DNA from: Myxococcota bacterium
Lineage (GTDB): Bacteria; Myxococcota_A; UBA9160; SZUA-336
Assembly: GCA_965247115.1 (NCBI GenBank)
Contig: CBDFGR010000003.1
Location: forward strand, 2,144,001-2,208,000
Direction of reading: 5' to 3'
Length of the DNA stretch: 64,000 nucleotides
Shown: positions 7,351 through 64,000 of the stretch, piece after piece
Position numbering within the stretch: position 1 is the stretch's first letter
How the letters are laid out: each line of letters starts with the position of its first letter
Translations under genes and position numbers: made by a program
The notes under the pieces: model-generated
Databases searched by the model: none
Seen by the model: only the letters and a program-made list of their open reading frames with translations
Told to the model about the DNA's origin: nothing

Positions 7351-7846
7351 GACGAGAAGGGTATACTCCGGGCACCCCCCGGCACCAGTGACCAAGACAG
7401 AGCGCGAGGAGCAACGGGTCGTGCTGGAGAGGTTGCGCGCAGATGCGCTCAGCCTGGCGACCGCGTATCGTCTGCCTCTGCGCTCCCTCGATGCCGAGCG
7501 ACCGCAGGTCAAGCGCCGCTACGGCATCTGCTACGACGATGGCAGCATCCGCATTCGGCTGCGCCACGTGCGCACCGGTCAGCTGCTCAAGTACTCGGCG
7601 CTTGTCGACACGCTATGCCACGAGCTGGCACACCTCAGGCACTTCGACCACGGTCGCCGCTTCAGCGCCTTCTACGAAAAACTCCTCGCCTACGCCCGCC
7701 GCAGGGGAATCTACCAACCAACCCCCCGCCCCCCGCGTCGCCGTCCCCCCCAACGCCCCGGCCTCTTCGAGATCCCCCCTCGCCCTCCGCCACACAAACC
7801 ACCGCAGCAGCTAGACCTCTTCCCCCCTCCACCGGAACACCCGTAA
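7349..7846 (+). CDS. Zn metallopeptidase-like protein (WLM/SprT/YgjP-like) with Pro-rich tail; start may be GTG 7388
   Basis: YGICY...IRIRLR...DTLCHELAHLRHFDHGRRF (HExxH plus downstream H). Confidence 0.75.
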   Translation: MTRRVYSGHPPAPVTKTEREEQRVVLERLRADALSLATAYRLPLRSLDAERPQVKRRYGICYDDGSIRIRLRHVRTGQLLKYSALVDTLCHELAHLRHFDHGRRFSAFYEKLLAYARRRGIYQPTPRPPRRRPPQRPGLFEIPPRPPPHKPPQQLDLFPPPPEHP

Positions 7847-7967: not shown

Positions 7968-8120
7968 AACTTGGGGACGGTTCTTAATCTGAACTCATTC
8001 CGCGTGAGACGACCGCAACGACGGCTAGATGGACGAATGTAGCCAAGAGTCCCGCCAGAGTGACCAGAAGTTCCGATATCGGCCAAACAAGTTCGGATTG
8101 AGGACCGTCCCCAAGTTCGG
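7968..8120. repeat. Family-A non-autonomous REPIN/MITE-like element, copy 1 (~153 bp)
   Basis: Ends AACTTGGGGACGGTTCTTAATCTGAACT and AAGTTCGGATTGAGGACCGTCCCCAAGTTCGG are inverted copies of the transposase terminal repeats; interior colinear with copy at 51064. Confidence 0.85.
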
Positions 8121-8163
8121 ATTCCGTGGAGAACCGGCAACCTCCTACGGGGCTTGGCAACCA

Positions 8164-8346
8164 TGCAAGCGCCGCGGAACGCGGCGCGCGCAGCGAAGGG
8201 CCTGGCCCTGAGCGGAGGTGGGTGGCAGCAAGCCGTGCCGAAGGCGCGGTGCGCAGTGAGGCGATAGCCGAACGAAGAGCGGGTGGCGCGCGACCGCTCG
8301 CGCGCCGGGCCCCGCAAGACGGGCCGCCCGCGGCCGGGTCCCACAG
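8164..8346 (+). repeat. Family-B three-hairpin REP-like repeats (one partial copy, one diverged full copy and a fragment in tandem)
   Basis: GCAAGCGCCGCGGAACGCGGCGCGCGCAGCGAAGGGCCTGGCCCTGAGCGGAGGTGGGTGG, then a second unit ending CCCGCAAGAC. Confidence 0.85.
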
Positions 8347-8354
8347 GGAGAGAC

Positions 8355-8558
8355 TCAGGCTTCTCGGACCTTGTCGTAGTCCTCGAGGGAGTTCGGCCCC
8401 TCGACTACCTTGACCTCGACGCCCTCGAGCGCGATCTGCTTGTCGAGGATCTGGGAGACGAGCTGGTCGACGGTGAGCTCATCGTACTCGGCCAGGGCGT
8501 CCTCCAGCCCGCTCTCTTCCACAGACATCGCGATCTGTAGCTTGATGGTGATGGGCAT
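8355..8558 (-). CDS. Small acidic hypothetical protein (67 aa)
   Basis: Clean ORF with GGAG upstream and host-like codon usage; no recognisable motif. Confidence 0.65.
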   Translation of the reverse strand: MPITIKLQIAMSVEESGLEDALAEYDELTVDQLVSQILDKQIALEGVEVKVVEGPNSLEDYDKVREA

Positions 8559-15700: not shown

Positions 15701-15951
15701 GTCTTGTGGGACCCGCCCGCGGGCGTCCGCGGCCACCCACTCTTCGCTCGCCTCCGGCTCGCTGCGCGCGCCGCTCCGCGGCGCTTGCAGGGTGCCGGTT
15801 AGAGGGCATATAGCCCGACTAGCCGGAACGTAGAATCAATCCCGCCCGGGTGTCTCCCTGCAAGCGCCGCGAATGCGGCGCGCGCAGCGAAGGCCGTAGG
15901 CCTGAGCGAAGGTGGGTGGCCCGCGGACGCCCGCGGGCCGGGTCCCACAAG
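15701..15951. repeat. Inverted doublet of family-B repeats (minus copy 15701-15789, plus copy 15859-15951)
   Basis: Both copies match the GCAAGCGCCGC...GGTCCCACAAG consensus in opposite orientation around a ~70 bp spacer. Confidence 0.88.
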
Positions 15952-15958
15952 GCAAGGA

Positions 15959-16072
15959 GTCGGTGGTCGGGAAACGTCCCCCGGAGGACTGTGGTAGCGG
16001 TATCCGAGGCGAGCAAGTCCTCTGTGCACGCAAGGAGCGGAGTCCGCCGGGGGACGTTTCCCGGCCTCCGAC
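15959..16072. repeat. 32-bp inverted repeat with 50-bp spacer upstream of leuC (family C)
   Basis: GTCGGTGGTCGGGAAACGTCCCCCGGAGGACT vs reverse complement of 16041-16072 GTCGGAGGCCGGGAAACGTCCCCCGGCGGACT (29/32 identical). Confidence 0.8.
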
Positions 16073-16160
16073 GGCGCCGGTCGTGTGCTGGCCACTTCGC
16101 AAGGCTCGTCGGATCGGTTAGAACCATGTTGGGGCGGGGGTTGGACCTGTCGAGGATGGT

Positions 16161-17564
16161 ATGGCGGGGACTCTGCTGGACAAGGTTTGGGATCTGCACA
16201 GCGTCAGGGAGCTGGACGGTGGGCAGACCCAGCTCTTTATCGGCCTGCACCTGATTCACGAGGTCACGAGCCCTCAGGGCTTTCAGATGCTGGAAGAGGC
16301 AGGGCACAAGCTGCTCTTTCCCGAGCGCACCTTCGCCACCGTCGACCACATCGTTCCGACCGACTCGCACGAGCGACCGCTCGCCGATCCGCTTGCCGAG
16401 GAGATGCTGGCGGTGCTCGATCGGAATACGCGGACCTACGGCATCGAGTTCTTCGGGATCGGCAGCGGCCGACAGGGGATCGTTCACGTCATCGGACCCG
16501 AGCTCGGACTCACCCAGCCCGGCATGACGATCGCGTGCGGCGATTCCCACACCTCGACGCACGGAGCGTTCGGCGCGATCGCCTTCGGAATCGGCACGAG
16601 CCAGGTGCGCGACGTGCTCGCGAGTCAGTGCCTGGCCATCGCGCGTCCCAAGGTGCGGCGTATCCGCGTGACCCGGGAGCTGGGCTACGGTGTGTACGCG
16701 AAGGACGTCATCCTGCACATCATTCGCACGCTCGGCGTGAAGGGCGGGGTCGGCTACGCGTACGAGTACGCCGGCCCGGTGATCGAGGGCTTCTCGATGG
16801 AGGAGCGGCTCACGCTCTGCAACATGTCGATCGAGGGCGGAGCGCGCGTTGGCTACGTCAACCCGGACGAGACGACCTTCGACTATTTGCGCGGTCTCCC
16901 CTACGCCCCGCAGGGGGAGGACTTCGATCGAGCGGTGCGGTGGTGGCGGTCGATCGCCAGCGACCCTGCCGCGAGCTATGCGGACGAGGTCGAGATCGAT
17001 GGCACCGAGGTCGCGCCGACCGTGACCTGGGGAACCCATCCCGGACAGAGCGTCGGCGTCGACCAGAGCTTGCCGCGACTCGACCAGGTCGACGAGGCCG
17101 ACCGCTCGGGGGCGGAGGAGGCGCTGCGCTTCATGGAGCTGCGCGCGGGTGAGCCGATCAAGGGGACACCGATCGATGTCGCCTTCATCGGTTCCTGCAC
17201 GAACAGCCGGATCTCTGACCTGCGCGAGGCAGCGAGGGTCGCTCGGGGCCGCACAGTGTCCCCGCACGTGCGCGCGCTCGTCGTTCCGGGTTCGGAGCAG
17301 GTCAAGCGGCAGGCCGAGGCCGAGGGGCTACACGAGACCTTCCTCGAGGCTGGCTTCCAGTGGCGGGAGGCCGGCTGCTCGATGTGTCTCGCGATGAACC
17401 CCGACAAGCTGGTCGGTCGCGAGCTCTGCGCGTCGAGTTCGAACCGGAACTTCCGCGGCAGGCAGGGCAGCCCCACCGGTCGCACCCTGCTGATGAGCCC
17501 GGCCATGGTGGCCCACGCCGCCATCGAAGGTCGCGTCAGCGACGTGAGGGAGGTCCCGAAATGA
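16161..17564 (+). CDS. leuC: 3-isopropylmalate dehydratase large subunit
   Basis: [52 protein letters not shown]. Confidence 0.97.
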
Positions 17565-18175
17565 GTGGAGCGGCGAGCGAGCAGATCCGGGAACGCCGTG
17601 GCCAGGGCATTGTGCTCCGCGGGAACGACATCGATACGGACCAGATCATTCCCGCCCGCTACCTGATCTCAACCCACTTTGCGGGGCTGGAGGAGGGGGT
17701 TTTTCAGGACCTTCGCTTCAATGCCAACGGCGAGGCGAAGGGTCACCCCTTTGATCGGGAGGAGTTCAAGAACGCCTCGATTCTGGTCGTGAACAAGAAT
17801 TTCGGCTGCGGGAGCTCACGCGAGCACGCTCCTCAGGCCCTCATGCGCTGGGGAATCCGCGCCATCATCGGCGAGTCCTTCGGCGAGATCTTCCACGGAA
17901 ACTGCGTCGCGCTCGGCGTCCCCGCAGCGGTGGTGGCGGAGGAGGATGTCGCGCAGCTGATGGATTCGGTCGAGCTGGATCCCTCTCAGGAGATCACGCT
18001 CGACCTCGTCGATCGTCTGGTCCGCTGGCGCAGTGGCTCAGCCCCTGCCACCGTCGGCGACGGCCCACGCCAGCAGCTCCTGGAGGGCACCTGGGACGCG
18101 ATGGCCACCCTGATCGCCGCCGAAGACCAGATTCGCGCCACCGAGAAGGCCCTTCCCTACCCCCGCTTTCGCTGA
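17561..18175 (+). CDS. leuD: 3-isopropylmalate dehydratase small subunit
   Basis: [43 protein letters not shown] overlap with leuC. Confidence 0.96.
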
Positions 18176-18277
18176 AGCAAGCCCTGTCGGAGATCGAGAA
18201 CGTCCGAAGGTGGAACCGGGAGTTCTGGCGAGAGTTGCGCGCTTCAGGAATGATTCGCCGCGACCGCTAATGGGGAG

Positions 18278-18634
18278 GTGGACGGAGCCGCTTCGGGAGT
18301 GGCGTTCGCTGAGTTCCTGGCCGCGTTCCGGGCCTCGCTCGTCATTCTGAGCGGTGCCGCCCGGGGTGCCGAGCTGCCCCTCGACCAGCTGAGGGTCACC
18401 CTGGGACGGGGTCCTGGGGTCGACCTGTGCTTCGAAGACGGGGAGATGGCACGCGCGCATGCCGCGATCGAGTTCTCCGAGGGCTGCTATCAGATTCGGG
18501 CTCTGGCTGCTGGGAAGGAGCTCTTCCTGAACGGGGGCGAGACGGCGGCCGCAGAGCTGAAGAGTGAGGATCGCTTCCGACTCGGCGGCCACACCTTCCA
18601 GTTTCTGCTGGAAGAACGGCGCTTTCCGACCTAG
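18278..18634 (+). CDS. FHA-domain protein with degenerate phosphothreonine-binding motif
   Basis: VTLGRGPGVDL..MARAHAAIE..LFLNG..LKSEDRFRLG; canonical SxxH appears as ARAH. Confidence 0.7.
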   Translation: MDGAASGVAFAEFLAAFRASLVILSGAARGAELPLDQLRVTLGRGPGVDLCFEDGEMARAHAAIEFSEGCYQIRALAAGKELFLNGGETAAAELKSEDRFRLGGHTFQFLLEERRFPT

Positions 18635-20704: not shown

Positions 20705-22432
20705 ATGTCCGGCTACCTGCACGACGGCATCCTGCTCTACCTGCAAGAGATGGTCGACTGGGACGGGTACTTCCGCTACCGGAAGGGTGAGGACTGCGAC
20801 GTCGAGAGCGAGCGGGCGGCGCTCGTCGGGGTACTCGAGACCTGTGCGGCGATCTGCGAGGAGATAGAGCCGGAGGCCCGGGAGGGCTGGCAGGAGACGG
20901 CGGAGCTCGTCGACGGGAGAGTCGTCCAGCCGCCACACGTCCGGCGTGGGCTCGACAAGCTGCGGCAGGCCGGGCTGTTGAGCCTTGGCGTCTCGGAGCG
21001 GTACGGCGGCTTCGAGCTCCCTGTAATGGTCGTCAACATGGTGATGGAGATGATCTCGCGCGCGGACGCCGCGCTGATGACGATCGTCGGACTGCAGAAC
21101 GGCGTGGCGGATGACATCGAGCGCTACGCAGACGAGGAGCTCTGCCGTCGCTACCTGCCGCGCTTCACGAGCGGCGAGGTCGAGGGAGCGATGGACCTGA
21201 CCGAGTCTGAGGCGGGCTCGGACCTGGGCGGCATCGTTACGCGCGCGACCGAGAGGGACGGCCGTGCCTTTCTCTCGGGCCAGAAAATCTTCATCACGAA
21301 CGGCGGCTGCGAGATCCACCTGGTGCTCGCACGCGACGACGACGCCTTCGAGCAGTCCAAGGGGACCACGAATGGGCTGTCCCTTTTCATCTGTCCCACC
21401 ACGCTGCCCGACGGTACAGCGAACGGTATCGCCGTGGAGCGGCTCGAGCACAAGCTCGGCATTCACGGCTCGCCAACGTGCGTCGTGCGCTTCGACGACG
21501 CGGAGGGCTGGCGCATCGGGACCAAGGGCGGGGGCTTCAGGGCGATGCTCGACCTCATGAACAACGCGAGGCTGGGTGTCGCCGGGCAGGCCGTCGGCAT
21601 CGCAGAGGCCTCAGTCGAGGAGGCCGTGCGCTACTCGACCGAGCGCAAGCAGTTCGGCGTACCGATCGGGGCACAGCCCCTGATGAAGAACATGCTCTCG
21701 CGCATGGTCATGAACCTGGAGGGGAGTCGCGCGCTTCTCTACCGCTGCTGCGTACTCGTCGACCGCAATCGCGCCATCGACGCGTACCTGGCGCGGCAGT
21801 CGGACATCTCCGAGCCGGAGCGCGCCGAGCTTGAGCGGATCAAGGAGCGCAACACCGTGCGCTACCGCCTGCTCACGCCGCTGTCCAAGTATCTCGCGAC
21901 GGAGTGCTGCGACGACATCTCGCGCTCTGCCATCCAGGTACACGGTGGGCTCGGCTTCATGGCGGAGTCAGCGGTGGGCAAGCTCCACCTCGACGGCATC
22001 ATCACGACGATCTACGAGGGCACCTCCGAGATCCAGGTCTCCTTCGCACTGAAGGAGATTGGCAAGGGCGCGCTCACGATCGTGTTCGACGAGCTGCGCA
22101 AAGAGCTCGGTGAGCTCAGCGACTCCACCCTGCTCCCGCTCGCCGATAAGGTCCGCGTCGGCATCGAGCGCATCGAGGACGTCTCGGTCGCGCTGCTCCG
22201 AGACCCGGCCTACGCGCTGCTCTCCGCGCGTTCCGTCGCCGAGATGGTCATCCACGTGATCGTGGGCACCGAGCTCCTGCGTCAGGCACACGCGAGCAGC
22301 TCCCGCTTCGATCTCGCCGCAAGCTGGGTCAATCGCAAGATGCTCGAGCTCGAGATGTACGCGGCCCGCGTCGGAGAAGGCGACGCCGCCCGCATCGAGC
22401 GCTGCGAGAAAATCATCGCCCTCTGGGATTAG
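20705..22432 (+). CDS. Acyl-CoA dehydrogenase family (long, AidB/FadE-like)
   Basis: AMDLTESEAGSDLG, GQKIFITNG, EHKLGIHGSPTC, MNNARLG, IQVHGGLG, TIYEGTSEIQ. Confidence 0.92.
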   Translation: MSGYLHDGILLYLQEMVDWDGYFRYRKGEDCDVESERAALVGVLETCAAICEEIEPEAREGWQETAELVDGRVVQPPHVRRGLDKLRQAGLLSLGVSERYGGFELPVMVVNMVMEMISRADAALMTIVGLQNGVADDIERYADEELCRRYLPRFTSGEVEGAMDLTESEAGSDLGGIVTRATERDGRAFLSGQKIFITNGGCEIHLVLARDDDAFEQSKGTTNGLSLFICPTTLPDGTANGIAVERLEHKLGIHGSPTCVVRFDDAEGWRIGTKGGGFRAMLDLMNNARLGVAGQAVGIAEASVEEAVRYSTERKQFGVPIGAQPLMKNMLSRMVMNLEGSRALLYRCCVLVDRNRAIDAYLARQSDISEPERAELERIKERNTVRYRLLTPLSKYLATECCDDISRSAIQVHGGLGFMAESAVGKLHLDGIITTIYEGTSEIQVSFALKEIGKGALTIVFDELRKELGELSDSTLLPLADKVRVGIERIEDVSVALLRDPAYALLSARSVAEMVIHVIVGTELLRQAHASSSRFDLAASWVNRKMLELEMYAARVGEGDAARIERCEKIIALWD

Positions 22433-22483
22433 CTACGACTCCCCGTAGGAGGACAAAACGCCTGACGGCAACACTCACGGGAT

Positions 22484-22864
22484 TCAGGGTGTGAACTGGC
22501 CGCGGTGGGTGGCTATCTGCCACGAGTTCCCCCAGGAGTCGCTGACCATCGCACGGCGGTCGCCGTAGGGCATCTCGCGCGGATCTTCGATAGATGTCGC
22601 ACCAGCGTCCAACGCACGCATATATGTGGCATCTGTGTCTTCTACGTAGACGTAGAGGAATGCAGGCTTGACGTCTCGAGCACTCGTCCCACTGATCATG
22701 AGGATCGACTCACCAATCCGGAGCTCTGCAGGCCGCCCAGATTGGTAGTCACCAGTGGCGCCGAATACATGCTTGATGAAACGGACCAGGTTCTCGGGTT
22801 CGTCAACGACGATCCGGGGGGTGACGGTGTGCCAGCCCTCGGGGACGTAGCTAGGGTTTGTCAT
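22484..22864 (-). CDS. VOC/glyoxalase (PhnB-like) protein, low GC
   Basis: PEGWHTVTP, AELRIGESILM, LYVYVEDTDA, MPYGDRRAMVSDSWGNSWQIAT. Confidence 0.88.
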   Translation of the reverse strand: MTNPSYVPEGWHTVTPRIVVDEPENLVRFIKHVFGATGDYQSGRPAELRIGESILMISGTSARDVKPAFLYVYVEDTDATYMRALDAGATSIEDPREMPYGDRRAMVSDSWGNSWQIATHRGQFTP

Positions 22865-23034
22865 TCTGGGTCCCCTCCGCGCAACTACCATACAAGTTGG
22901 CGGGCCATGGCGGTTCGGTCCCCCGACAGACTGCACTGCAGGCGTATGATGCAGCTCTCAGAATGGTCTGGAGGGACGCCCCGCACGGCCACGCCTGACT
23001 CCCCCCAGAAGCTCGTTCCTACGGGAGGATATGC

Positions 23035-24519
23035 ATGGGCAGTCCGGATCTGGTAATTCGCAACGCACGGATTCTGGACGGGTCGGGTGGCCCGGCGTTT
23101 CCTGGCGACGTCGAGATTCGGGCTGGGCGGATCTCTAGCGTCGGGTCGGCAACCGCGGGCCAGCGAGAGATCGACGCGGTGGGGCAGGTGCTATCGCCCG
23201 GGTTCGTGGATACGCATACCCACGATGACGCGGCGCTGCTCCGATATCCCGGGATGGAGTTCAAGCTCGCTCAGGGGTGCACGAGTCTCGTGATCGGGAA
23301 CTGTGGGTTCAGTGCGGCTCCGAATCGGCCCGAGGGGAGGGAGCCGCCAGGGAGTGGCGGCCTGTTTCGCGGGGTGAAGGCCGAGTGGGAGGACCTCGCC
23401 GGCTACTTCGAGGCAGTGGAGGCGCGAGAGCCCGCGCTGAATGCCGTCGCGCTCGTCGGTCACAATACGACTCGCGCGCTCGTGATGGGTGACGAGGATC
23501 GTGCGCCCAGTGACTCGGAGCTGGCGGAGATGCGCGCGCATACGACGCTTGCGATGGAGCAGGGCGCGTGCGGGTTCTCTACGGGGCTGATCTACCGGCC
23601 CGGGCGCTACAGCGAGACCGAGGAGATCATCGCCGTCGCTGGGCCTGTGGCCGAGCACGCTGGGATCTACGCCACGCACATGCGCGACGAGGGGGACGGG
23701 TTGCTCGACGCGGTGGAGGAGACGTTGCGCATCGGCCGCGAGGTCGGCTGTGCGATCCAGATCTCTCACCACAAGTCGGCCGGCCGCGAGAACTGGGGCA
23801 AGGTCGGCGCCTCGCTGGCGCGCGTCGACAAGGCAAACGCGGAGGGTGCGGACGTCACACTCGACGTCTATCCCTACACCGCGGGCAGCGGTCCCATGAT
23901 CGAGTACTTCCGGCTGGATGCCATCTCGCGCTCACTCGCAGAGGTGGTCCGCATCGCGAACTGTCCAGCCTTTCGCGAGTACGAGGGGCGCATGGTGACC
24001 GAGATCGGCAAAGAGCTCGGGCTGCCCGCGACGGAAGTGGTGCGGAAGATCCTGACCGCGCCGGGCGGCGAGCGGACGATCTGCATCCAGTTCATTATCG
24101 ACGAGGCCGACATCGAGACGAACCTGCGCCACCCGAAGATGATGGTCGGGTCCGACGGGATCCCGGATCTTACCGGGAGTCCGCATCCGCGGCTGTTCGG
24201 CACGTTTCCGCGCGTACTGGGCCACTACGTGCGTGAGCGCAGGGTGCTGTCGCTCGAGGATGCCGTGCGCAGGATGACAAGTCTGTCTTGCGAGCGCTTC
24301 GGACTGCTCGAGCGCGGTCGCATCCGGGAGGGCTACTGGGCGGATCTCGTGATCTTCGATCCCGACCGGGTCGTCGATACCGCGACCTACGACGACCCGA
24401 AGCAGGAGCCGGAGGGTATCCGGGCCGTCATCGTGAACGGCCAGGTCGCCTACGAGGACGGTCGTCACACAGGCGTGGGTGCTGGCCGAATGCTGCGCTA
24501 CAGGAGCCCGGTGGCGTAG
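23035..24519 (+). CDS. N-acyl-D-amino-acid deacylase (amidohydrolase family 3)
   Basis: PGFVDTHTHDD, GNCG, GFSTGLIY, THMRDE, ISHHK, GSDG, HPRLFGTFPRVLG. Confidence 0.92.
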   Translation: MGSPDLVIRNARILDGSGGPAFPGDVEIRAGRISSVGSATAGQREIDAVGQVLSPGFVDTHTHDDAALLRYPGMEFKLAQGCTSLVIGNCGFSAAPNRPEGREPPGSGGLFRGVKAEWEDLAGYFEAVEAREPALNAVALVGHNTTRALVMGDEDRAPSDSELAEMRAHTTLAMEQGACGFSTGLIYRPGRYSETEEIIAVAGPVAEHAGIYATHMRDEGDGLLDAVEETLRIGREVGCAIQISHHKSAGRENWGKVGASLARVDKANAEGADVTLDVYPYTAGSGPMIEYFRLDAISRSLAEVVRIANCPAFREYEGRMVTEIGKELGLPATEVVRKILTAPGGERTICIQFIIDEADIETNLRHPKMMVGSDGIPDLTGSPHPRLFGTFPRVLGHYVRERRVLSLEDAVRRMTSLSCERFGLLERGRIREGYWADLVIFDPDRVVDTATYDDPKQEPEGIRAVIVNGQVAYEDGRHTGVGAGRMLRYRSPVA

Positions 24520-29632: not shown

Positions 29633-29645
29633 AGTGGACTGCCCA

Positions 29646-29739
29646 GCAAGCGCCGCGTAAGCGGCGCGCGCAGCGAAGGGCGAAGCCCTGAGCGAAGGTG
29701 GGTGGCCCGCGGCCGCCCGTGGGCCGGGTCCTACAAGAC
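29646..29739 (+). repeat. Family-B repeat between convergent genes
   Basis: GCAAGCGCCGCGTAAGCGGCGCGCGCAGCGAAGGGCGAAGCCCTGAGCGAAGGTGGGTGGCCCGCGGCCGCCCGTGGGCCGGGTCCTACAAGAC. Confidence 0.9.
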
Positions 29740-29744
29740 CTGTT

Positions 29745-30500
29745 TTAGGCGATGTCTTTGAGGCGTTCGCGGGCGGTGAAGATGGCGAGGCGCTTTGACG
29801 CGATCGTGTGTAGGGAGATGAGGCACTCGACGCGAACGAAGTCTCCGTTCGGGCGTTTGAGGACGATCTCGATCGGTCCGGAGTCCTCGCCCGCGTCCAG
29901 CCGCGCCTCCAGGTCGGAGTAGAACTGGCGGTCCTGGGCGGCGATCAGCTTCTCGAAGCTCTGATCGAGCAGCTTGGCGACATCCGCGCCGAGCAGCGCC
30001 TCCGCGGCGGGGTTCACGTCAAAGATCTTGCCGGTGTCGAGATTCAGCGCCACGTACGCATCGCTGATGCGATCGATTGCGGCGCGTATGCGCTTACCCG
30101 CGTTCGGCCTGCGGCGTCTGCCCTTGCGCTGCTTGCGGCTCTCTACCGGAAGCATGAGCCGCCGGATAGCGGCGCGGAACTGCTGTTCCATCCTGCGCAA
30201 CGCGCCGGCCACCTCAGGCTCCGGTCCACACTCGATCGCGATCTCGACCGCTACGGAGAGGGCACGCTCGAGCGCAGCAGGTTCGTTGCCTCCAAGGCCA
30301 TCGAGTGAGGGACGGGCGGCATTCGAGTCGAGACTTGCCAGACGGCAGTAGGTGCGGAAGCGCCGGATGATCTCTGCGCGCGCGGCCGGTGTGGGCTGCG
30401 CTCCGCCCATGCGGCGGTCGACCTCCGCCTCGATGGCACTCCGATAGCGCTCCATGTGGAGCACCGCTCCTCTGAGCGCCACGCTCTCACCCCCACCCAT
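29745..30500 (-). CDS. PAS-domain protein without output domain
   Basis: C-terminal IFDVNPAAEALLG..LKRPNG..TARE PAS signature. Confidence 0.75.
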   Translation of the reverse strand: MGGGESVALRGAVLHMERYRSAIEAEVDRRMGGAQPTPAARAEIIRRFRTYCRLASLDSNAARPSLDGLGGNEPAALERALSVAVEIAIECGPEPEVAGALRRMEQQFRAAIRRLMLPVESRKQRKGRRRRPNAGKRIRAAIDRISDAYVALNLDTGKIFDVNPAAEALLGADVAKLLDQSFEKLIAAQDRQFYSDLEARLDAGEDSGPIEIVLKRPNGDFVRVECLISLHTIASKRLAIFTARERLKDIA

Positions 30501-31980: not shown

Positions 31981-33060
31981 TCAAGACTTTATGGCGCGCT
32001 GGCGCAGCAGGTGATCGCACAGAACGAGACACACCATGGCCTCGACCATGGGCACCGCGCGAGGGAGTACGCACGGATCGTGGCGGCCCTGGGCCTCCAG
32101 GACGACAGACTCCAGGTCCCGGTTCACGGTCTCCTGCTGCTTTCGGATGGTGGCAGTGGGCTTGAATGCGGCGCGTACGACGATCGGCTCGCCGTTCGAG
32201 ATCCCGCCCTGCACGCCGCCCGAGCGGTTGGAACGAGTGCGCACCTGACCCGCTTCGGCGTAGAACGGGTCGTTGTGTTCGCTCCCTTTCAACAGCGTGC
32301 CCGCAAAGCCAGATCCGATCTCGAAACCCTTGCAAGCAGGAAGCGAGAGCAGCGCCCGTGCGAGCTCAGCCTCGAGCTTGTCGAACACCGGCTCACCCAG
32401 ACCGGGTGGGACAAGGTGCGCCACGCAGGTCACGACGCCACCGAGGGAGTCCCCCTCGTTGCGCGCGAGATCGATGCGATCGATGATGGTCTGGGCCGCT
32501 TCGGGATCCGGGCAGCGCGTTGGACCGGCCTCCACCTGCGCGCGTGTCACCCGAAGCGGATCGGACTTGCACTCGATGGTGTGCACGCGACTCACGAACC
32601 CGGTGATCTCTCCGAGGCCCGCGAGCGCCAGCACCTTGCGCGCGATCGCTCCCGCGGCAACACGCCCGATGGTCTCGCGCGCACTTGCGCGCCCCCCTCC
32701 CTGCCAGTTGCGGACCCCGTACTTCGCCTCGTAGGTGTAGTCCGCGTGCGAGGGTCGATAAACGTCGCGCAGCTCCTCGTACGCTTCGGGCCGCGCGTCC
32801 CTGTTGTCGACGGCGATCAGAATGGGCGTTCCGAGAGTCTCTCCCTCGAACACCCCAGACAGAATCCGCGCCCGGTCCTCCTCCTGCCGCGGTGAAGTCA
32901 GCCGACTCTGCCCAGGCCGCCTCCGATCCAGCTCAACCTGAATCTCCTCGACCCCGAGCGAAATCCCCGGCGGACACCCATCGACCACCACCCCGACCCC
33001 GCCCCCGTGCGACTCCCCCCAGGTATGCACCCGAAACAACCGCCCAAAAGAAGACCCCAT
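31981..33060 (-). CDS. aroC: Chorismate synthase
   Basis: [47 protein letters not shown]. Confidence 0.97.
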
Positions 33061-33075
33061 CCCCAAATTCTAGCG

Positions 33076-34049
33076 CCGAACTTAGGGACGGTCCTTAATC
33101 CGAACTTTTCGGATCACGACCACTCCGAGCACCAGCGCCTCGTCGCACATGGCGGCTGACGGCCGAATCTGAGACGCCGAGCGCCTCGGCGATGAAGATC
33201 TTGGACAGCCCCAGTTCGACTGCTGCGCGATAGGCGATCTCTGTGCGGGCTCTTGAAGTCGCGCGATCTCTGCGACCCTGGATCAGGCCCACCGGATCGA
33301 TGCCATGAGTACGGCAGACCTCGTGGATTAGATGTTGGACTCGACTCGGCGGAGTCTCTCCGCTGGAGTCTGACGCCGGGTCGACGCCCGCCTGCATGAA
33401 GCGATTCAGCACGCTCCGCGCTCTGGTCAGGTCGCTGGCGAAGAGAGCGAGCGCCTTGGTCGAATGATGGAACTGTTGCGGGCGAATCGCCCATGAGTGC
33501 CGCGTGTCCGGACCAAGGATAGCGTCTGAGAGACGCCAAGGAGTCTACGATCCCGGCGGTCACCGGATTCAGATGGACGTAGCGGATCAGATTCAGGAGG
33601 TCGTTATCATCACGGACGAGTCGCGACTTGAACCTGTTCTGGACTAGATGCCCCACACGCCCGTGGCGCTGGTTGAAATACATCGCGTAGCCAGTGCCAA
33701 CTCGGGCCATCACGCGGCCGACTGGGACCTCCCCTGTCCGAACGACGAGATGGTAGTGATTCGACATCAACACCCAGGCGTAGCACGAGCAACCAGACTC
33801 GGGGAGGACATCCGAGAGACGTCTCAGGAGGTCTCGGGCGTCCCGATCGTCTTTGAAGATGTCGCGGCGATCGACTCCGCGAACCATCACATGATGAACG
33901 GCGCCAGGAGCATCCAGACGAGGGCCACGCGGCAAGAGATGACCTCAAGCTTCGGGACCCTGTTGAGGGAGTCGATAACATGCTTTCGGCAAACTCTCCA
34001 GTTGTCGGCGATCGAAAAAGTTCGGATTAAGGACCGTCCCCAAGTTCGG
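33076..34049. mobile_element. RAYT-type (HUH/Y1) transposase element bounded by 34-bp inverted repeats (33076-33109, 34016-34049)
   Basis: CCGAACTTAGGGACGGTCCTTAATCCGAACTTTT matches the reverse complement of the right end at 33/34 positions; extra partial copy at ~34049-34065. Confidence 0.88.
33095..33935 (-). pseudogene. REP-associated tyrosine transposase with C-terminal DnaA-domain-IV-like HTH; +1 frameshift near 33488
   Basis: HHVMVRG, MSNHYHL (HUH), RYVHLNPV, YPWSG; protein continues in another frame as IRPQQFHHSTKALALF...LGLSKIFIAEALGVSDSAVSR. Confidence 0.82.
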
Positions 34050-35109
34050 GACCGTCCCCCAGTTCTAGGTGGAGGACCTTTTTGGTGAGGGTGGAGAGGG
34101 GGAGGGTGTTTGCGGTTTTGCTTGTGCACCAGCGGGCTTCTTTCGCAAGGCCGGGGCGGAGGCGGCTTGGGAGGAGGCAGAGGGTGAAGAGGTTCAGGGT
34201 GAAGGCGCGGTGGGAAAGGGCGTGATGGATCGTGCCCACCGGTTCACCCGGTTGCGTCTTCAGGCCTGTGCGGTCTTGTAGGCCCTCGATGAGGGCGTTC
34301 ACACTTGTGCCTTCCGCGGTCGGGACTTCCCAGAGACCGCCCAGGATGCCTTTGCTGGGGCGGCGGAGCATGAGGAGTTTGTTCGCCCGTTTGACGATGC
34401 CGCAGGTGAGCGTGACCTCGCGCGGGGGGCTCTTCTCTTTTCGTGCTGGGTAGCGATTCGGGTCTCCGGAAGAGGCGGCGCGGCAGGACCGTCGCAAGGG
34501 GCAGGCCAGGCAGTTGGGGTTGCGCGGTTTGCAGACGGTGGCGCCGAGCTCCATGAGCGCCTGGTTGAAGCGTCCGGGTGTCTGGTCCGGGACGAGCTCC
34601 TCGGCTTTGGTCCAGGTGTCTGCGTCGGAGAGTGCGGGCTCCGCAACCAGGCGTGCGATCACTCGTCTGACGTTTGCGTCGACAATGGCGGCAGGCTCGT
34701 CGAACGCAATGCTGCGGATGGCTCCGCTCGTGTAGCGGCCGATGCCGGGCAGGTTGCGCAGTGCAGCGGCATCGCGCGGCACGGCGCCGTCGTGCTCCCG
34801 CAGCATCAGTTCTGCGGCGCGCTTCAGGTGACGCGCTCGTGCGTAGTACCCGAGGCCGGCCCACTCACGCAGGACGTCTTGCTCGTCCGCGACCGCGAGC
34901 GAGCGCAGCGTGGGGAAGCGCTCGATGAAGCGGTCGTAGTAGGGAATCACGGTCTCGACCCGGGTTTGCTGCAGCATCGACTCCGAGAGCCAGATGCGGT
35001 ACGGGTCTTTGGTCCTGCGCCAGGGCAAGTCCCGCTCGGCGCCGCGATACCAGTCGAGCAGGTGTCGCCGGATGGTGTCGCGTCTGTCGCGGGTGAAGCG
35101 GGGGATCAC
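34027..35109 (-). CDS. mutY: A/G-specific adenine glycosylase
   Basis: RDLPWR, SESMLQQTRV, GLGYYARAR, LPGIGRYT, VDANVRRV, CKPRNPNCLACPLRRSC Fe-S loop. Confidence 0.95.
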   Translation of the reverse strand: MIPRFTRDRRDTIRRHLLDWYRGAERDLPWRRTKDPYRIWLSESMLQQTRVETVIPYYDRFIERFPTLRSLAVADEQDVLREWAGLGYYARARHLKRAAELMLREHDGAVPRDAAALRNLPGIGRYTSGAIRSIAFDEPAAIVDANVRRVIARLVAEPALSDADTWTKAEELVPDQTPGRFNQALMELGATVCKPRNPNCLACPLRRSCRAASSGDPNRYPARKEKSPPREVTLTCGIVKRANKLLMLRRPSKGILGGLWEVPTAEGTSVNALIEGLQDRTGLKTQPGEPVGTIHHALSHRAFTLNLFTLCLLPSRLRPGLAKEARWCTSKTANTLPLSTLTKKVLHLELGDGPELGDGP

Positions 35110-49497: not shown

Positions 49498-51042
49498 GTG
49501 AGCGCACGGATCGTCTATGGCGGAGCCGCAGCTCTTCTCGTCTGCGCGTTGCTGGGTGTGCGCTCCGCGGGCCAGAGCAGCTACGCCATATGGATCGAAG
49601 ACTCGCTGCCGCTGCTAATCCACGAGCCCGATGCGGCGACGTCGCGCGACGGAGAGCGCCTGCCAGTGGTCGTGCTCTCGCACGGATCCCTCGGCAACAG
49701 CAGCTTGTTGAACTCGTTGGCGCGGCGCCTGAGTGCTCAGGGATTCGCGGTGATCACCTTCGACTCTCGCGGTCAAGGGCGTAGCCGGCGCCCTTTCGAG
49801 CGAAGTGTGGGCTTTGTGCCCGAAGGCCTGATCGAGGACTTCGACCAGGCCGTGCTCTGGGCGCGTTCGCAGGCGCGCTACGATGGTCAGCGCCTCGCCG
49901 TAGGAGGCCACGGAACGGGCGCGGCCGGCGCGCTCGCCTACGCGGCGCGGCGCGATCCCGGAGTGGCCGCCGTCGTTGCCATCTCCGGTAGCGCTTCTCT
50001 GGACGGGCCCTACACGCCACCGAACGTGCTGTTACTCTGGGGGGAGCGTGCCCCGTCAGCTCTGCGCGCGCTCTCACGGCAGCGCGGGGCCGAGCTGATC
50101 TCTGCGAACCGGGCCGTGCTCGAGCGTACCTACGGCAGCTTCGAGCGGGGTACGGCCGTGCGCCTGGCCGAGGTGGAGGGAGCGAACCATCTCTCCGTTC
50201 TTTACGCTCAGGGCGCCGCCTCCGAGATCTCGAGCTGGTTGGCCGGCGCGCTGACACCCACGCCCGACCTCGGGCCTGTCCCCCGGGACGCGTCGCTTCT
50301 CTGGGCGCTTGTCGGGATGTTGGGCGCGCTCGCTCTGCTCTTGGGAATGCCGCAGGCCGTCGCACCGCTCGCGCCGCGCGTCGCACTTCCCGCGGTGACA
50401 CATCCCTGGCAGCGGCTCGGGCTCGTAGCCGCTGCTCTGGCCGCCAGTACGGTGCTGCTCGTCGGCGCCGACCAGGTTGCGGGCAGCGCGCCTCTCGCCG
50501 TCTTCCCGCTCTCCGGCGCTCGTGACGTGCTGGGCTTCTTCGCCATCGCGGGAGTCGGTCTGCTCGCCTACGCCGCCAGGGATACGCGCGTGCGCGCCGA
50601 AGGGCTTCGAGACTGGCGCACCTGGACCAGCGCTGGACTCATTCTGGGTTTCATCTATGTCAGCATCGGGGTGCTGAGCCAGCCGTTCTGGGATCCGTTG
50701 CTGAGCTCCCGAAGGCTATTGCCCTGGGCCGCTGCCACGCTGCTGTTGCTGCCCTGGTTCGGCGTCACCGAGTGGCTGCTCCGCGGCCCCCTGCTCGCTC
50801 AGGCCTGGCTCCCCGCTGCGGCCCGCCTCCTGACCCTGGCCGCCCTCGCGTCCGCAGCGTTCTTCGGCCTGGTCCCCCGCGCACTTCTCGCCGCCCTCGT
50901 CCCGCTCGTTCTCCTCTTCGCCATCTTCGAGGCCCTGGCCTTCCGCCTCTCCCGTCAGCTCCCGAACCCCTGGCTCTCCGCCCTCGTCCAATCCGCCTGG
51001 TTCGCCTGGCTCCTAGCTGCATTCTTCCCCATCGAGGGCTAG
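49498..51042 (+). CDS. Alpha/beta-hydrolase-fold protein fused to a multi-TM C-terminal domain
   Basis: VVLSHGSLG, FDSRGQG, GGHGTG (no nucleophile Ser), NHL; hydrophobic C-terminal half. Confidence 0.72.
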   Translation: MSARIVYGGAAALLVCALLGVRSAGQSSYAIWIEDSLPLLIHEPDAATSRDGERLPVVVLSHGSLGNSSLLNSLARRLSAQGFAVITFDSRGQGRSRRPFERSVGFVPEGLIEDFDQAVLWARSQARYDGQRLAVGGHGTGAAGALAYAARRDPGVAAVVAISGSASLDGPYTPPNVLLLWGERAPSALRALSRQRGAELISANRAVLERTYGSFERGTAVRLAEVEGANHLSVLYAQGAASEISSWLAGALTPTPDLGPVPRDASLLWALVGMLGALALLLGMPQAVAPLAPRVALPAVTHPWQRLGLVAAALAASTVLLVGADQVAGSAPLAVFPLSGARDVLGFFAIAGVGLLAYAARDTRVRAEGLRDWRTWTSAGLILGFIYVSIGVLSQPFWDPLLSSRRLLPWAAATLLLLPWFGVTEWLLRGPLLAQAWLPAAARLLTLAALASAAFFGLVPRALLAALVPLVLLFAIFEALAFRLSRQLPNPWLSALVQSAWFAWLLAAFFPIEG

Positions 51043-51063: not shown

Positions 51064-51220
51064 CCGAACTTAGGGACGGTCCTTAATCCGAACTTATTCC
51101 GCGCGAGACGACCGCAGCGACGCCTGGATGAACGAGTGTGCCCACGAGCCCCGCCAGAGTGACCAGAAGTTCCGACTTTCGGCCAAACAAGTTCGGATTG
51201 AGGACCGTCCCCAAGTTCGG
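51064..51220. repeat. Family-A non-autonomous REPIN/MITE-like element, copy 2 (157 bp)
   Basis: CCGAACTTAGGGACGGTCCTTAATCCGAACTT ... AAGTTCGGATTGAGGACCGTCCCCAAGTTCGG; left end identical to the transposase left repeat over 32 nt. Confidence 0.9.
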
Positions 51221-51225
51221 ATGGA

Positions 51226-51297
51226 TGCGGCGCGCGCAGCGAAGGGCGAAGCCCTGAGCGGAGGTGGGTGGCCGCGGGCGCCCTCGGCCGGGTCCCA
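51226..51297 (+). repeat. 5'-truncated family-B repeat abutting the family-A element
   Basis: TGCGGCGCGCGCAGCGAAGGGCGAAGCCCTGAGCGGAGGTGGGTGGCCGCGGGCGCCCTCGGCCGGGTCCCA. Confidence 0.85.
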
Positions 51298-63374: not shown

Positions 63375-63406
63375 ACCGAGAGAGTCTAGCGGGTCTTGCG
63401 GGCCTG

Positions 63407-63731
63407 GTCTTGTGGGACCCGGCGCGCGAGCGGTCGCGCGCCACCCACCTCCGCTCAGGGCTACGCCCTTCGCTGCGCGCCGCGTTCGCGGCGCTTGCAT
63501 AGGTGCCAAGCCCCGTAGGATGGAACCTGAACTTGGAGGACCGTCCCTAGGTTCTAACGGAATAAGTTCAGATTAAGGAGTCCCTAAGTTCAGATTCCGT
63601 GGAGAACCGGCTACCTTCTGCGGGGCTTGGCAACCGTGCAAGCGCCGCGAACGCGGCGCGCGCAGCGAAGGCCGTAGGCCTGAGCGGAGGTGGGTGGGCC
63701 GCGGACGCCCGCGGCCCGGGTCCCACAAGAC
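63407..63731. repeat. Composite locus: family-B (-) 63407-63499, family-A end fragments 63528-63594, family-B (+) 63637-63731
   Basis: Direct sequence matches to both repeat consensuses; the arms extend inward as TGCCAAGCCCCGTAGGA / TTCTGCGGGGCTTGGCA. Confidence 0.88.
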
Positions 63732-64000
63732 TAAGGAGCGGGCTCGGAGGTGATGGCGTAGCCGGCGTCGGCGCGGATGGTGAGCTGGCGTTTGCCATCG
63801 AGGTCCTTGATGACGGGGAGGACGGGGACGACAGGGCGTTTGCGCGAGGCGGTGAGGGCGGCCTCGGAGCTCTCGAAGCCTGCGAGCGTGTCCAGGTTGC
63901 GGGCCGTGGGAAAGATGAGTCGGAGCTCTCCGCGTTTGGAACGCTCGAGCGCATCTTCCGGGCGGGTCCAGACGTGGTTCGTGGACTCGATCCCATCGTG
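63731..64000 (-). CDS. C-terminal part of a probable NUDIX hydrolase (5' end outside window)
   Basis: Manual translation HDGIESTNHVWTRPEDALERSKRGELRLIFPTARNLDTL...SEPAP*; resembles NUDT19-like C-termini. Confidence 0.6.
   Translation of the reverse strand, partial: HDGIESTNHVWTRPEDALERSKRGELRLIFPTARNLDTLAGFESSEAALTASRKRPVVPVLPVIKDLDGKRQLTIRADAGYAITSEPAP

Follow-up and report, generated by a model that had tools for sequence, protein, structure and literature searches.

The DNA analysed here is a window of 64,000 nucleotides from a bacterial genome (G000; 5.17 Mb, three contigs, 66% GC). Its class is, on our assumption, probably UBA9160 of the GTDB, and aroC relatives as well as the records of a congener, G002, carry the label Myxococcota. 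Between aroC and mutY lies an element that consists of two terminal inverted repeats (TIRs) and a Y1/HUH gene, TIRYT, and that is flanked on both sides by a short zone of strand bias, termed halo in the following (Table 1). The minus-strand orientation that the original prediction had given for both neighbouring genes was confirmed, and Pfam provides their identities. Further repeat-bearing junctions of the window are included in the table.

Table 1. Genes, repeats and halos in the window (position 1 is the first nucleotide of the window)
Feature	Coordinates	Strand	Basis or remark
aroC, chorismate synthase	31981..33060	-	Pfam
Left TIR, A family, core GGGGACGGTCC	33076..33109	+	87 genome matches
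TIRYT gene, Y1/HUH, NHYH and YVHLNP motifs, frameshifted near 33485	33095..33935	-	Pfam, motifs
Right TIR and partial second copy; provides mutY stop codon	34010..34064	-	
mutY-type glycosylase, HhH-GPD and NUDIX_4	34027..35109	-	Pfam
Halo, aroC 5' end, G/T-rich synonymous sites on outward (minus, coding) strand	32700..33060	-	
Halo, mutY 3' end, G/T-rich on outward (plus, template) strand	34065..34450	+	
TIR pair and B repeat	7968..8347	.	junction z 3.4
B-repeat pair and D hairpin ahead of leuC	15703..16072	.	junction z 2.8
Single B repeat	29642..29740	+	junction z 1.3
TIR pair and B repeat	51064..51297	.	junction z 4.6
B-repeat pair flanking degenerate TIR	63403..63731	.	junction z 3.6

The left and right TIRs of the element are 34 nt long and 97% identical, and besides the 87 matches of this family A the genome holds 117 matches of a second repeat family, B. 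TIRYT scores 32.3 bits against Pfam PF01797 (Y1_Tnp; cut-off 23), and its NHYH and YVHLNP motifs agree with the NH[YF]H and Y[IV]HLNP motifs given as diagnostic for TnpA-Y1 subclass 2.1 in Table 1 of PMC6006769. This subclass corresponds to the TIRtrons with their TIRYT genes (Di Nocera 2013, PMC3733652; Quentin 2018, PMC6006769). As in TIRtrons, the Y1/HUH gene with these motifs appears to have a C-terminal HTH-like tail and the TIRs appear to share a GGGGAC core, and TIRs are dispersed as singles and dimers. The TIR sequence GGGGACGG agrees with the consensus GGGGWSAS at 7/8 positions, and relatives in the class mostly have GGGGACGT. HTH_23 matches P0123 (E 0.081) and P0124 (E 0.0013), two close relatives, in both cases below the cut-off, and PF08299 or PF13384 is present in many homologues. 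The system also resembles the REPtrons or RAYT-REPIN systems, such as E. coli TnpA-REP, in the enzyme superfamily and in having intergenic repeats mostly at 3' ends, as far as described in PMC3116915, PMC3479197 and PMC8266576. However, GT[AG]G-footed hairpins were sought at the element ends and not found, the ends being TIRs without this motif; a separate B repeat has GTGG ahead of its hairpin. The REPtron model NF047646 of NCBIfam gives P0123 74.1 bits, under its cut-off of 80. By its sequence features the element appears to be a TIRtron of TnpA-Y1 subclass 2.1, which is a better fit than a GTAG REPtron. The original prediction stands in that core genes carry a strand-specific halo, a few hundred bp long and indifferent to gene direction. 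Its assignment of the element to REP/RAYT does not stand, and HUH nicking, which it named as the cause, is hypothetical.

In the window the TIRYT reading frame is broken near 33485. The same frameshift occurs in run X1 and is absent from contigs of X3, X4 and X6, which come from three other studies, and from P0123, a homologue 97% identical to the TIRYT of the window. The C-terminal TIRYT piece terminates inside the left TIR; both this piece (33095-33097) and mutY (34027-34064) take their stop codons from TIRs, and in G002 mutY is likewise terminated by a TIR remnant. Over 33082-34046, the aroC flank runs into a different TIRYT allele at the same offset in contigs of four runs, with 71-74 differences over 460 nt in three of them, which indicates two cassettes at the site in populations. 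Since the cassette between the TIRs is missing in G002 and occurs as two alleles in related samples, the site is reworked.

The skew was originally described by nine hand counts, all of which proved exact or in agreement with the description on recount. On the plus strand, 32941-33060 to the left of the element has C58/G21, and 34081-34200 to the right, a segment that partly covers the poorly constrained Pro/His-rich mutY tail, has G59/C17. Among 86,206 genomic 120-mers, 0.026% are equally C-skewed as the left one and 0.006% equally G-skewed as the right one. Other left flanks of the window are C-rich (C68/G20 at 7681-7800, C60/G23 at 50881-51000) and other right flanks G-rich (G42/C16 at 16131-16220, where 16131-16160 is intergenic, G34/C12 at 29741-29820 and G52/C29 at 63781-63900). 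The right flanks at 8355 and 51307, which had been called low in skew, are indeed flat (+0.01 and +0.07). In both, a B repeat sits between TIR and gene, and genome-wide the halo is weaker in this arrangement (3' ends +0.30 vs +0.48). The skew persists at synonymous sites: aroC has G33:C8 at four-fold sites of codons 1-80 and G57:C62 in codons 120-360, and in mutY the coding strand of codons 20-60 from the end has C22:G2, hence G-rich outward. The aroC-mutY junction ranks 10th among 4,271 junctions (z 5.3). Halo polarity is also seen at 22432-23035 and 18175-18278 (z 3.9 and 3.3), where no repeat was detected; these are possible scars of lost elements.

For the whole genome, the outward strand was defined as the one whose 5'->3' direction leads off from a repeat, and four-fold sites were scored in 4,379 genes called with our own caller. 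Gene starts were called with a model blind to synonymous choice, guarding against start-calling bias, and 3' gene ends are independent of start calling. The background GC skew of the genome is about 0.02 per 100 kb. In the 180 nt adjoining a TIR-bearing junction, outward four-fold GC skew at 3' ends is +0.45 in convergent and +0.47 in tandem arrangement (controls +0.11 and +0.06), and at 5' ends it is +0.16 and +0.19 (controls -0.04). Positive skew is found at 66/68 TIR junctions and 82/101 B-only junctions, counts from which five junctions of the tandem family C were excluded, and 0/20,000 orientation-matched resamplings reached the TIR mean. With distance from the TIR the skew takes values of 0.66, 0.56, 0.44, 0.30 and 0.13 at 3' ends and, in the same bins, of 0.38, 0.57, 0.37, 0.14 and 0.02 at 5' ends; once the baseline is removed, gene starts and ends give like curves. 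The baseline-corrected excess per 50-nt bin is 0.58, 0.57, 0.50, 0.39, 0.26, 0.21, 0.10 and 0.06, and beyond the eighth bin it is <=0.05 out to 3 kb, the halo being gone by ~400 nt. Within these 3 kb the skew does not turn to the opposite sign in any outer zone. A finite-tract (Gaussian) fit gives a chi2 of 9.5 versus 30.6 for an exponential. GC content near TIRs changes little, and a halo inside the element was sought and not found.

The checks proposed in the original prediction, namely four-fold sites, both gene strands, repeat-free controls and orthologues that lack the TIR, were all passed by the halo. An artefact of gene orientation is ruled out by the convergent controls (+0.11 vs +0.45 at TIRs), and amino-acid or low-complexity effects by the presence of the halo at four- and two-fold sites; codon positions 1-2 shift slightly. 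Generic hairpins were rejected because stem length does not correlate with skew (Spearman -0.05 to 0.04), and replication direction because no difference appeared by a crude background-skew proxy. No decaying halo was seen beside the 52 repeat-free among 53 tRNA genes. Halos accompany other repeat families of the genome as well (D, 16/19 positive; E, 11/11; a second Y1 family, 19/28). Of 12 TIRs first called solo, several proved paired or near other repeats; among five that were rechecked, four lean on both sides, unequally, and one on neither.

We show here that the halo depends on the repeat. At the aroC start the skew is 0.68 in G000 and 0.37 in G002 and ranges from -0.42 to +0.17 in 26/26 other orthologues, which lack a TIR; two of these matched a loose 7-nt pattern, yet have no TIR. 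At the mutY end, three orthologues give 0.01 versus 0.86 in G000. In 400 kb of genome G030, which alone serves as repeat-free genome control, neither a TIRYT match nor the TIR pattern was found, and skew is flat at its 53 convergent junctions. In G000 (0.10 to 0.03) and G002 (0.12 to 0.005), a mild slope persists at convergent ends after repeat masking, in line with what scars of lost repeats would leave.

The composition of the halo looks mutational. At two-fold sites of the outward strand, T rises from 0.13 to 0.29 and A falls from 0.19 to 0.09 at 3' ends, with corresponding changes from 0.21 to 0.34 and from 0.14 to 0.09 at 5' ends. The odds of outward T over C and of G over A are up ~2.5-fold at 3' ends and less at 5' ends, outward C>T and A>G have log odds of 0.96 and 0.91 and are nearly context-free, and the shift is found in all eight four-fold codon families and, at two-fold sites, in nearly all families. 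A four-fold model in which only C>T and A>G are raised yields G0.52/C0.29/T0.15, compared with 0.63/0.22/0.10 observed, whereas the observed composition is reached when C>G is added (0.63/0.21/0.12). The congener was compared over 1,223 orthologues of 88% identity from 2.0 of 5.8 Mb, with 118 genes near TIRs. Under the assumption of a reversible, stationary process and from two genomes only, outward C>G, C>T, A>G, T>G and G>T run at 1.4-1.9x control near TIRs, and G/T-ward rates at up to 2.3x where both genomes have a TIR, while outward G>C, T>C and G>A stay at 0.8-1.0x. The spectrum is thus one of added change, transversions included.

G002 has 84 TIR matches; between its aroC and mutY there is only one TIR, and no TIRYT was matched in this genome (95% complete) with the query used; G000 has the TIRYT gene. 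Where only G000 has a TIR, it is more skewed than G002 (G/C 48:22, p 0.003; G/A 21:4), and the same holds where both have one (68:39, p 0.007). At sites where the TIR is confined to G002, skew is also seen in the orthologue of G000 (G0.50/C0.34), with differences of 71:82 (p 0.42). Total four-fold divergence near TIRs is barely up (0.297 vs 0.275). Together with the skew of both genomes at G002-only sites, this small rise indicates that much of the halo predates the split or outlasts the repeat.

The halo appears to be limited to this host class. TIRYT occurs in 48/225 class genomes, TIRs are present at 40/41 examined loci, and 74/78 measurable flanks are positive. Four-fold skew at these loci declines through 0.67, 0.27, 0.07 and 0.03 at 3' ends, and through 0.27, 0.03, 0.04 and -0.06 at 5' ends. 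Dispersed TIRs of one class genome, G190, are positive in 21/24 cases; another, G209, has 9/12 positive with a mean near 0.03. Among 79 metagenome TIRYT loci from elsewhere, 50 have TIRs, 19 have none and 10 are too short. Unlike here, the flanks of TIRtrons in these other hosts are positive in only 43/86 cases, the skew at their 3' ends being weak at best (+0.17, n=293), and E. coli REPs (33 junctions in 400 kb) have no outward G excess. In other classes of the phylum TIRs were found at 3/8 loci and 1/6 flanks is positive, with two 3' ends going from 0.41 to 0.18. Since the halo is missing at TIRtrons of other hosts and at E. coli REPs, it needs this host background or long residence. Loss of mismatch repair was ruled out as the cause, as profiles find MutS in 61/61 genomes and MutL in 5/5; together with MutS and MutL, three Y-family proteins and Ku, also present, are candidate host factors.

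For a halo of this polarity, shape, spectrum, repeat dependence and host range, we favour, with a probability of about 0.5, repeated cutting at the repeat, after which 100-400 bases of the outward strand would be recopied and polymerase errors left uncorrected; this would produce the mirror-image G/T pattern. TIRYT, or a nuclease of another repeat family, would cut at the repeat; the outward strand would then be newly made 5'->3', either primed from the 3'-OH that an HUH nick leaves (for nick chemistry see PMC3479197) or as fill-in following excision and 5' resection, a sequence of events modelled for grasses in PMC5023962. Misinserted dG and dT would become fixed, and host repair enzymes might determine whether a scar forms. 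Mirror symmetry, finite tract length, indifference to gene direction and the added change towards G and T fit new outward-strand synthesis, and the halo-free element interior and the cassette turnover are compatible with either route. The proposal also resembles the leader-strand footprint of error-prone Pol I at the ColE1 origin, where strand-biased errors decay from a priming site (Allen 2011, PMC3167613). Five of six complementary substitution pairs lean as in that nascent strand (C>T, A>G, C>G, G>T and A>T above their complements), whereas for T>G versus A>C the lean is reversed; the reference there is an engineered E. coli enzyme on a plasmid, acting in one direction over >1 kb. Given the presence of MutS and MutL, the proposal has to suppose that the errors escape mismatch repair. 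Against it also count the missing halo at TIRtrons of other hosts and in G209, the skew of G000 at sites where G002 alone has a TIR, the small rise in divergence, and the halos at B, D and E repeats and at loci of the second Y1 family and of HNH-like genes. In a wider and rather unlikely version, the TIRs would be docking sites at which a domesticated HUH enzyme primes outward low-fidelity synthesis on both sides, as tiny abortive origins; the system would then naturally direct mutation to the ends of adjacent genes throughout the class, and the halo would date and map enzyme activity in vivo.

The main rival, which has the same polarity and a chance clearly below that of error-prone recopying, is that a nick leaves the outward strand displaced and unpaired, so that deamination causes C>T and A>G and abasic-site bypass adds transversions. 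The equal strength of these two transitions (0.96 and 0.91) with hardly any context would suit it, as would the action of Y1 enzymes on single-stranded DNA and their staying bound to the 5' end, as described in PMC3479197. However, transitions alone give too little G and too much T at four-fold sites, and the G/C and G/T differences are raised. Break resection would moreover leave the inward strand exposed rather than the outward one. If a double-strand break were simply resected and the single strand deaminated, the opposite polarity would be predicted. Genes of the second Y1 family are G-rich on their own coding strand (+0.35, 15/15 positive), but an IS5-like gene is equally G-rich (+0.30), and thus this is a weak sign of deamination.

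Two further explanations have been weakened. Outward transcripts fired or leaked by the repeats, which would end within a few hundred bases and until then allow mutation of the non-template strand in bubbles or R-loops, would give the observed polarity, and both the excess of 3' over 5' ends in the class (0.67 vs 0.27) and the mild slope at repeat-masked convergent ends of G000 and G002 point that way. Yet the 52 tRNA genes lack a decaying halo, 1,340 divergent control starts are at -0.04, convergent ends are flat in the repeat-free G030, no sigma-70-like site was found in 32900-34250, and the halo is strong in the translated start of aroC, which together make transcription improbable. We consider it at least as improbable that selection maintains C-rich tracts on the way into the repeat for Rho loading or that insertion chose pre-existing skew flips. 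Selection or target choice would accommodate three observations: the inward strand has much C and little G, skew is present in both congeners at sites where one of them lacks the TIR, and 38/68 TIR junctions are convergent. A rut site is pyrimidine-rich, but on the inward strand T declines and A increases. Orthologues that lack the TIR are not skewed in this way either (aroC -0.42 to +0.17 vs 0.68 and 0.37; three mutY 0.01 vs 0.86), and after the split the skew grew in the lineage that carries TIRYT.

At replication origins GC skew switches from C-rich on the left to G-rich on the right, the keto-rich strand leading away. The halo has the same polarity; however, it is 300 nt wide, occurs at ~70 sites per genome, lies far above the skew of the genome itself and is not tied to it. 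Substitutions gained in flanks of mobile DNA, genes included, are described for transposon excision in grasses and modelled there as resection with error-prone fill-in (Wicker 2016, PMC5023962). That case concerns eukaryotic DDE elements and a rate increase over ~3 kb, whereas the halo extends over ~300 nt, is strand-polar and comes with a small rate increase. For TIRtrons, the word 'skew' does not occur in PMC3733652 and no mention of flank mutation was seen there, and the terms TIRYT or TIRtron are used in only two works of the open-access literature searched. In the main texts of that literature we came across no account of skewed flanks at REP, RAYT or TIR loci, in line with an earlier remark that none was known. 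The strand bias is real, strong and anchored to repeats of a known element type, and the bias itself was not found in print. With the in vivo role of RAYT/TIRYT enzymes described as still open (PMC6006769), a strand-polar scar lets the sites, the strand and the reach of their action be read from sequence, and it can be scored in any genome. Such a strong local mutation bias recodes core genes and would mislead codon-usage, dS and origin analyses. It also points to a host repair step that might be usable for short-range targeted mutagenesis.

Some further loci of G000 were noted. A perfect 23-bp palindrome joins two TIR halves (AACTTGGGGACCCCAAGTT core) at C3:1368462-1368502, among the strongest halos (z 5.5). 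A tandem C-rich repeat family (CAGCGTCCCTCGCAGCG; 40 matches, e.g. C1:5304-5512 and C2:275235-275443) lies outside the halo counts. The second Y1 family has ~15 copies (e.g. C3:546712-547829, C2:942497-944022, C3:60266-61525) with RHPCHVTLR, DHAH/NHAH and YVLLN motifs, no obvious TIRs, a G-rich coding strand and frequent halos, and may be the partner of B or D repeats. About seven genes, among them C3:2441890-2443069, C3:1297197-1298678 and C3:1424156-1425598, are flanked by CTCTCCCCGGGGAGAG-type hairpins and encode what we take to be relatives of DUF222/HNH proteins; junctions with such a hairpin show halo polarity in 11/11 cases. Several TIR neighbours look, by eye and from protein starts, like repair or replication genes (polA, NAD ligase, priA, alkyltransferase-like); such neighbours are located at C2:1021833-1024490, C2:1547075, C3:1445128, C2:1636016 and C3:1308756, and mutY of the window is another.
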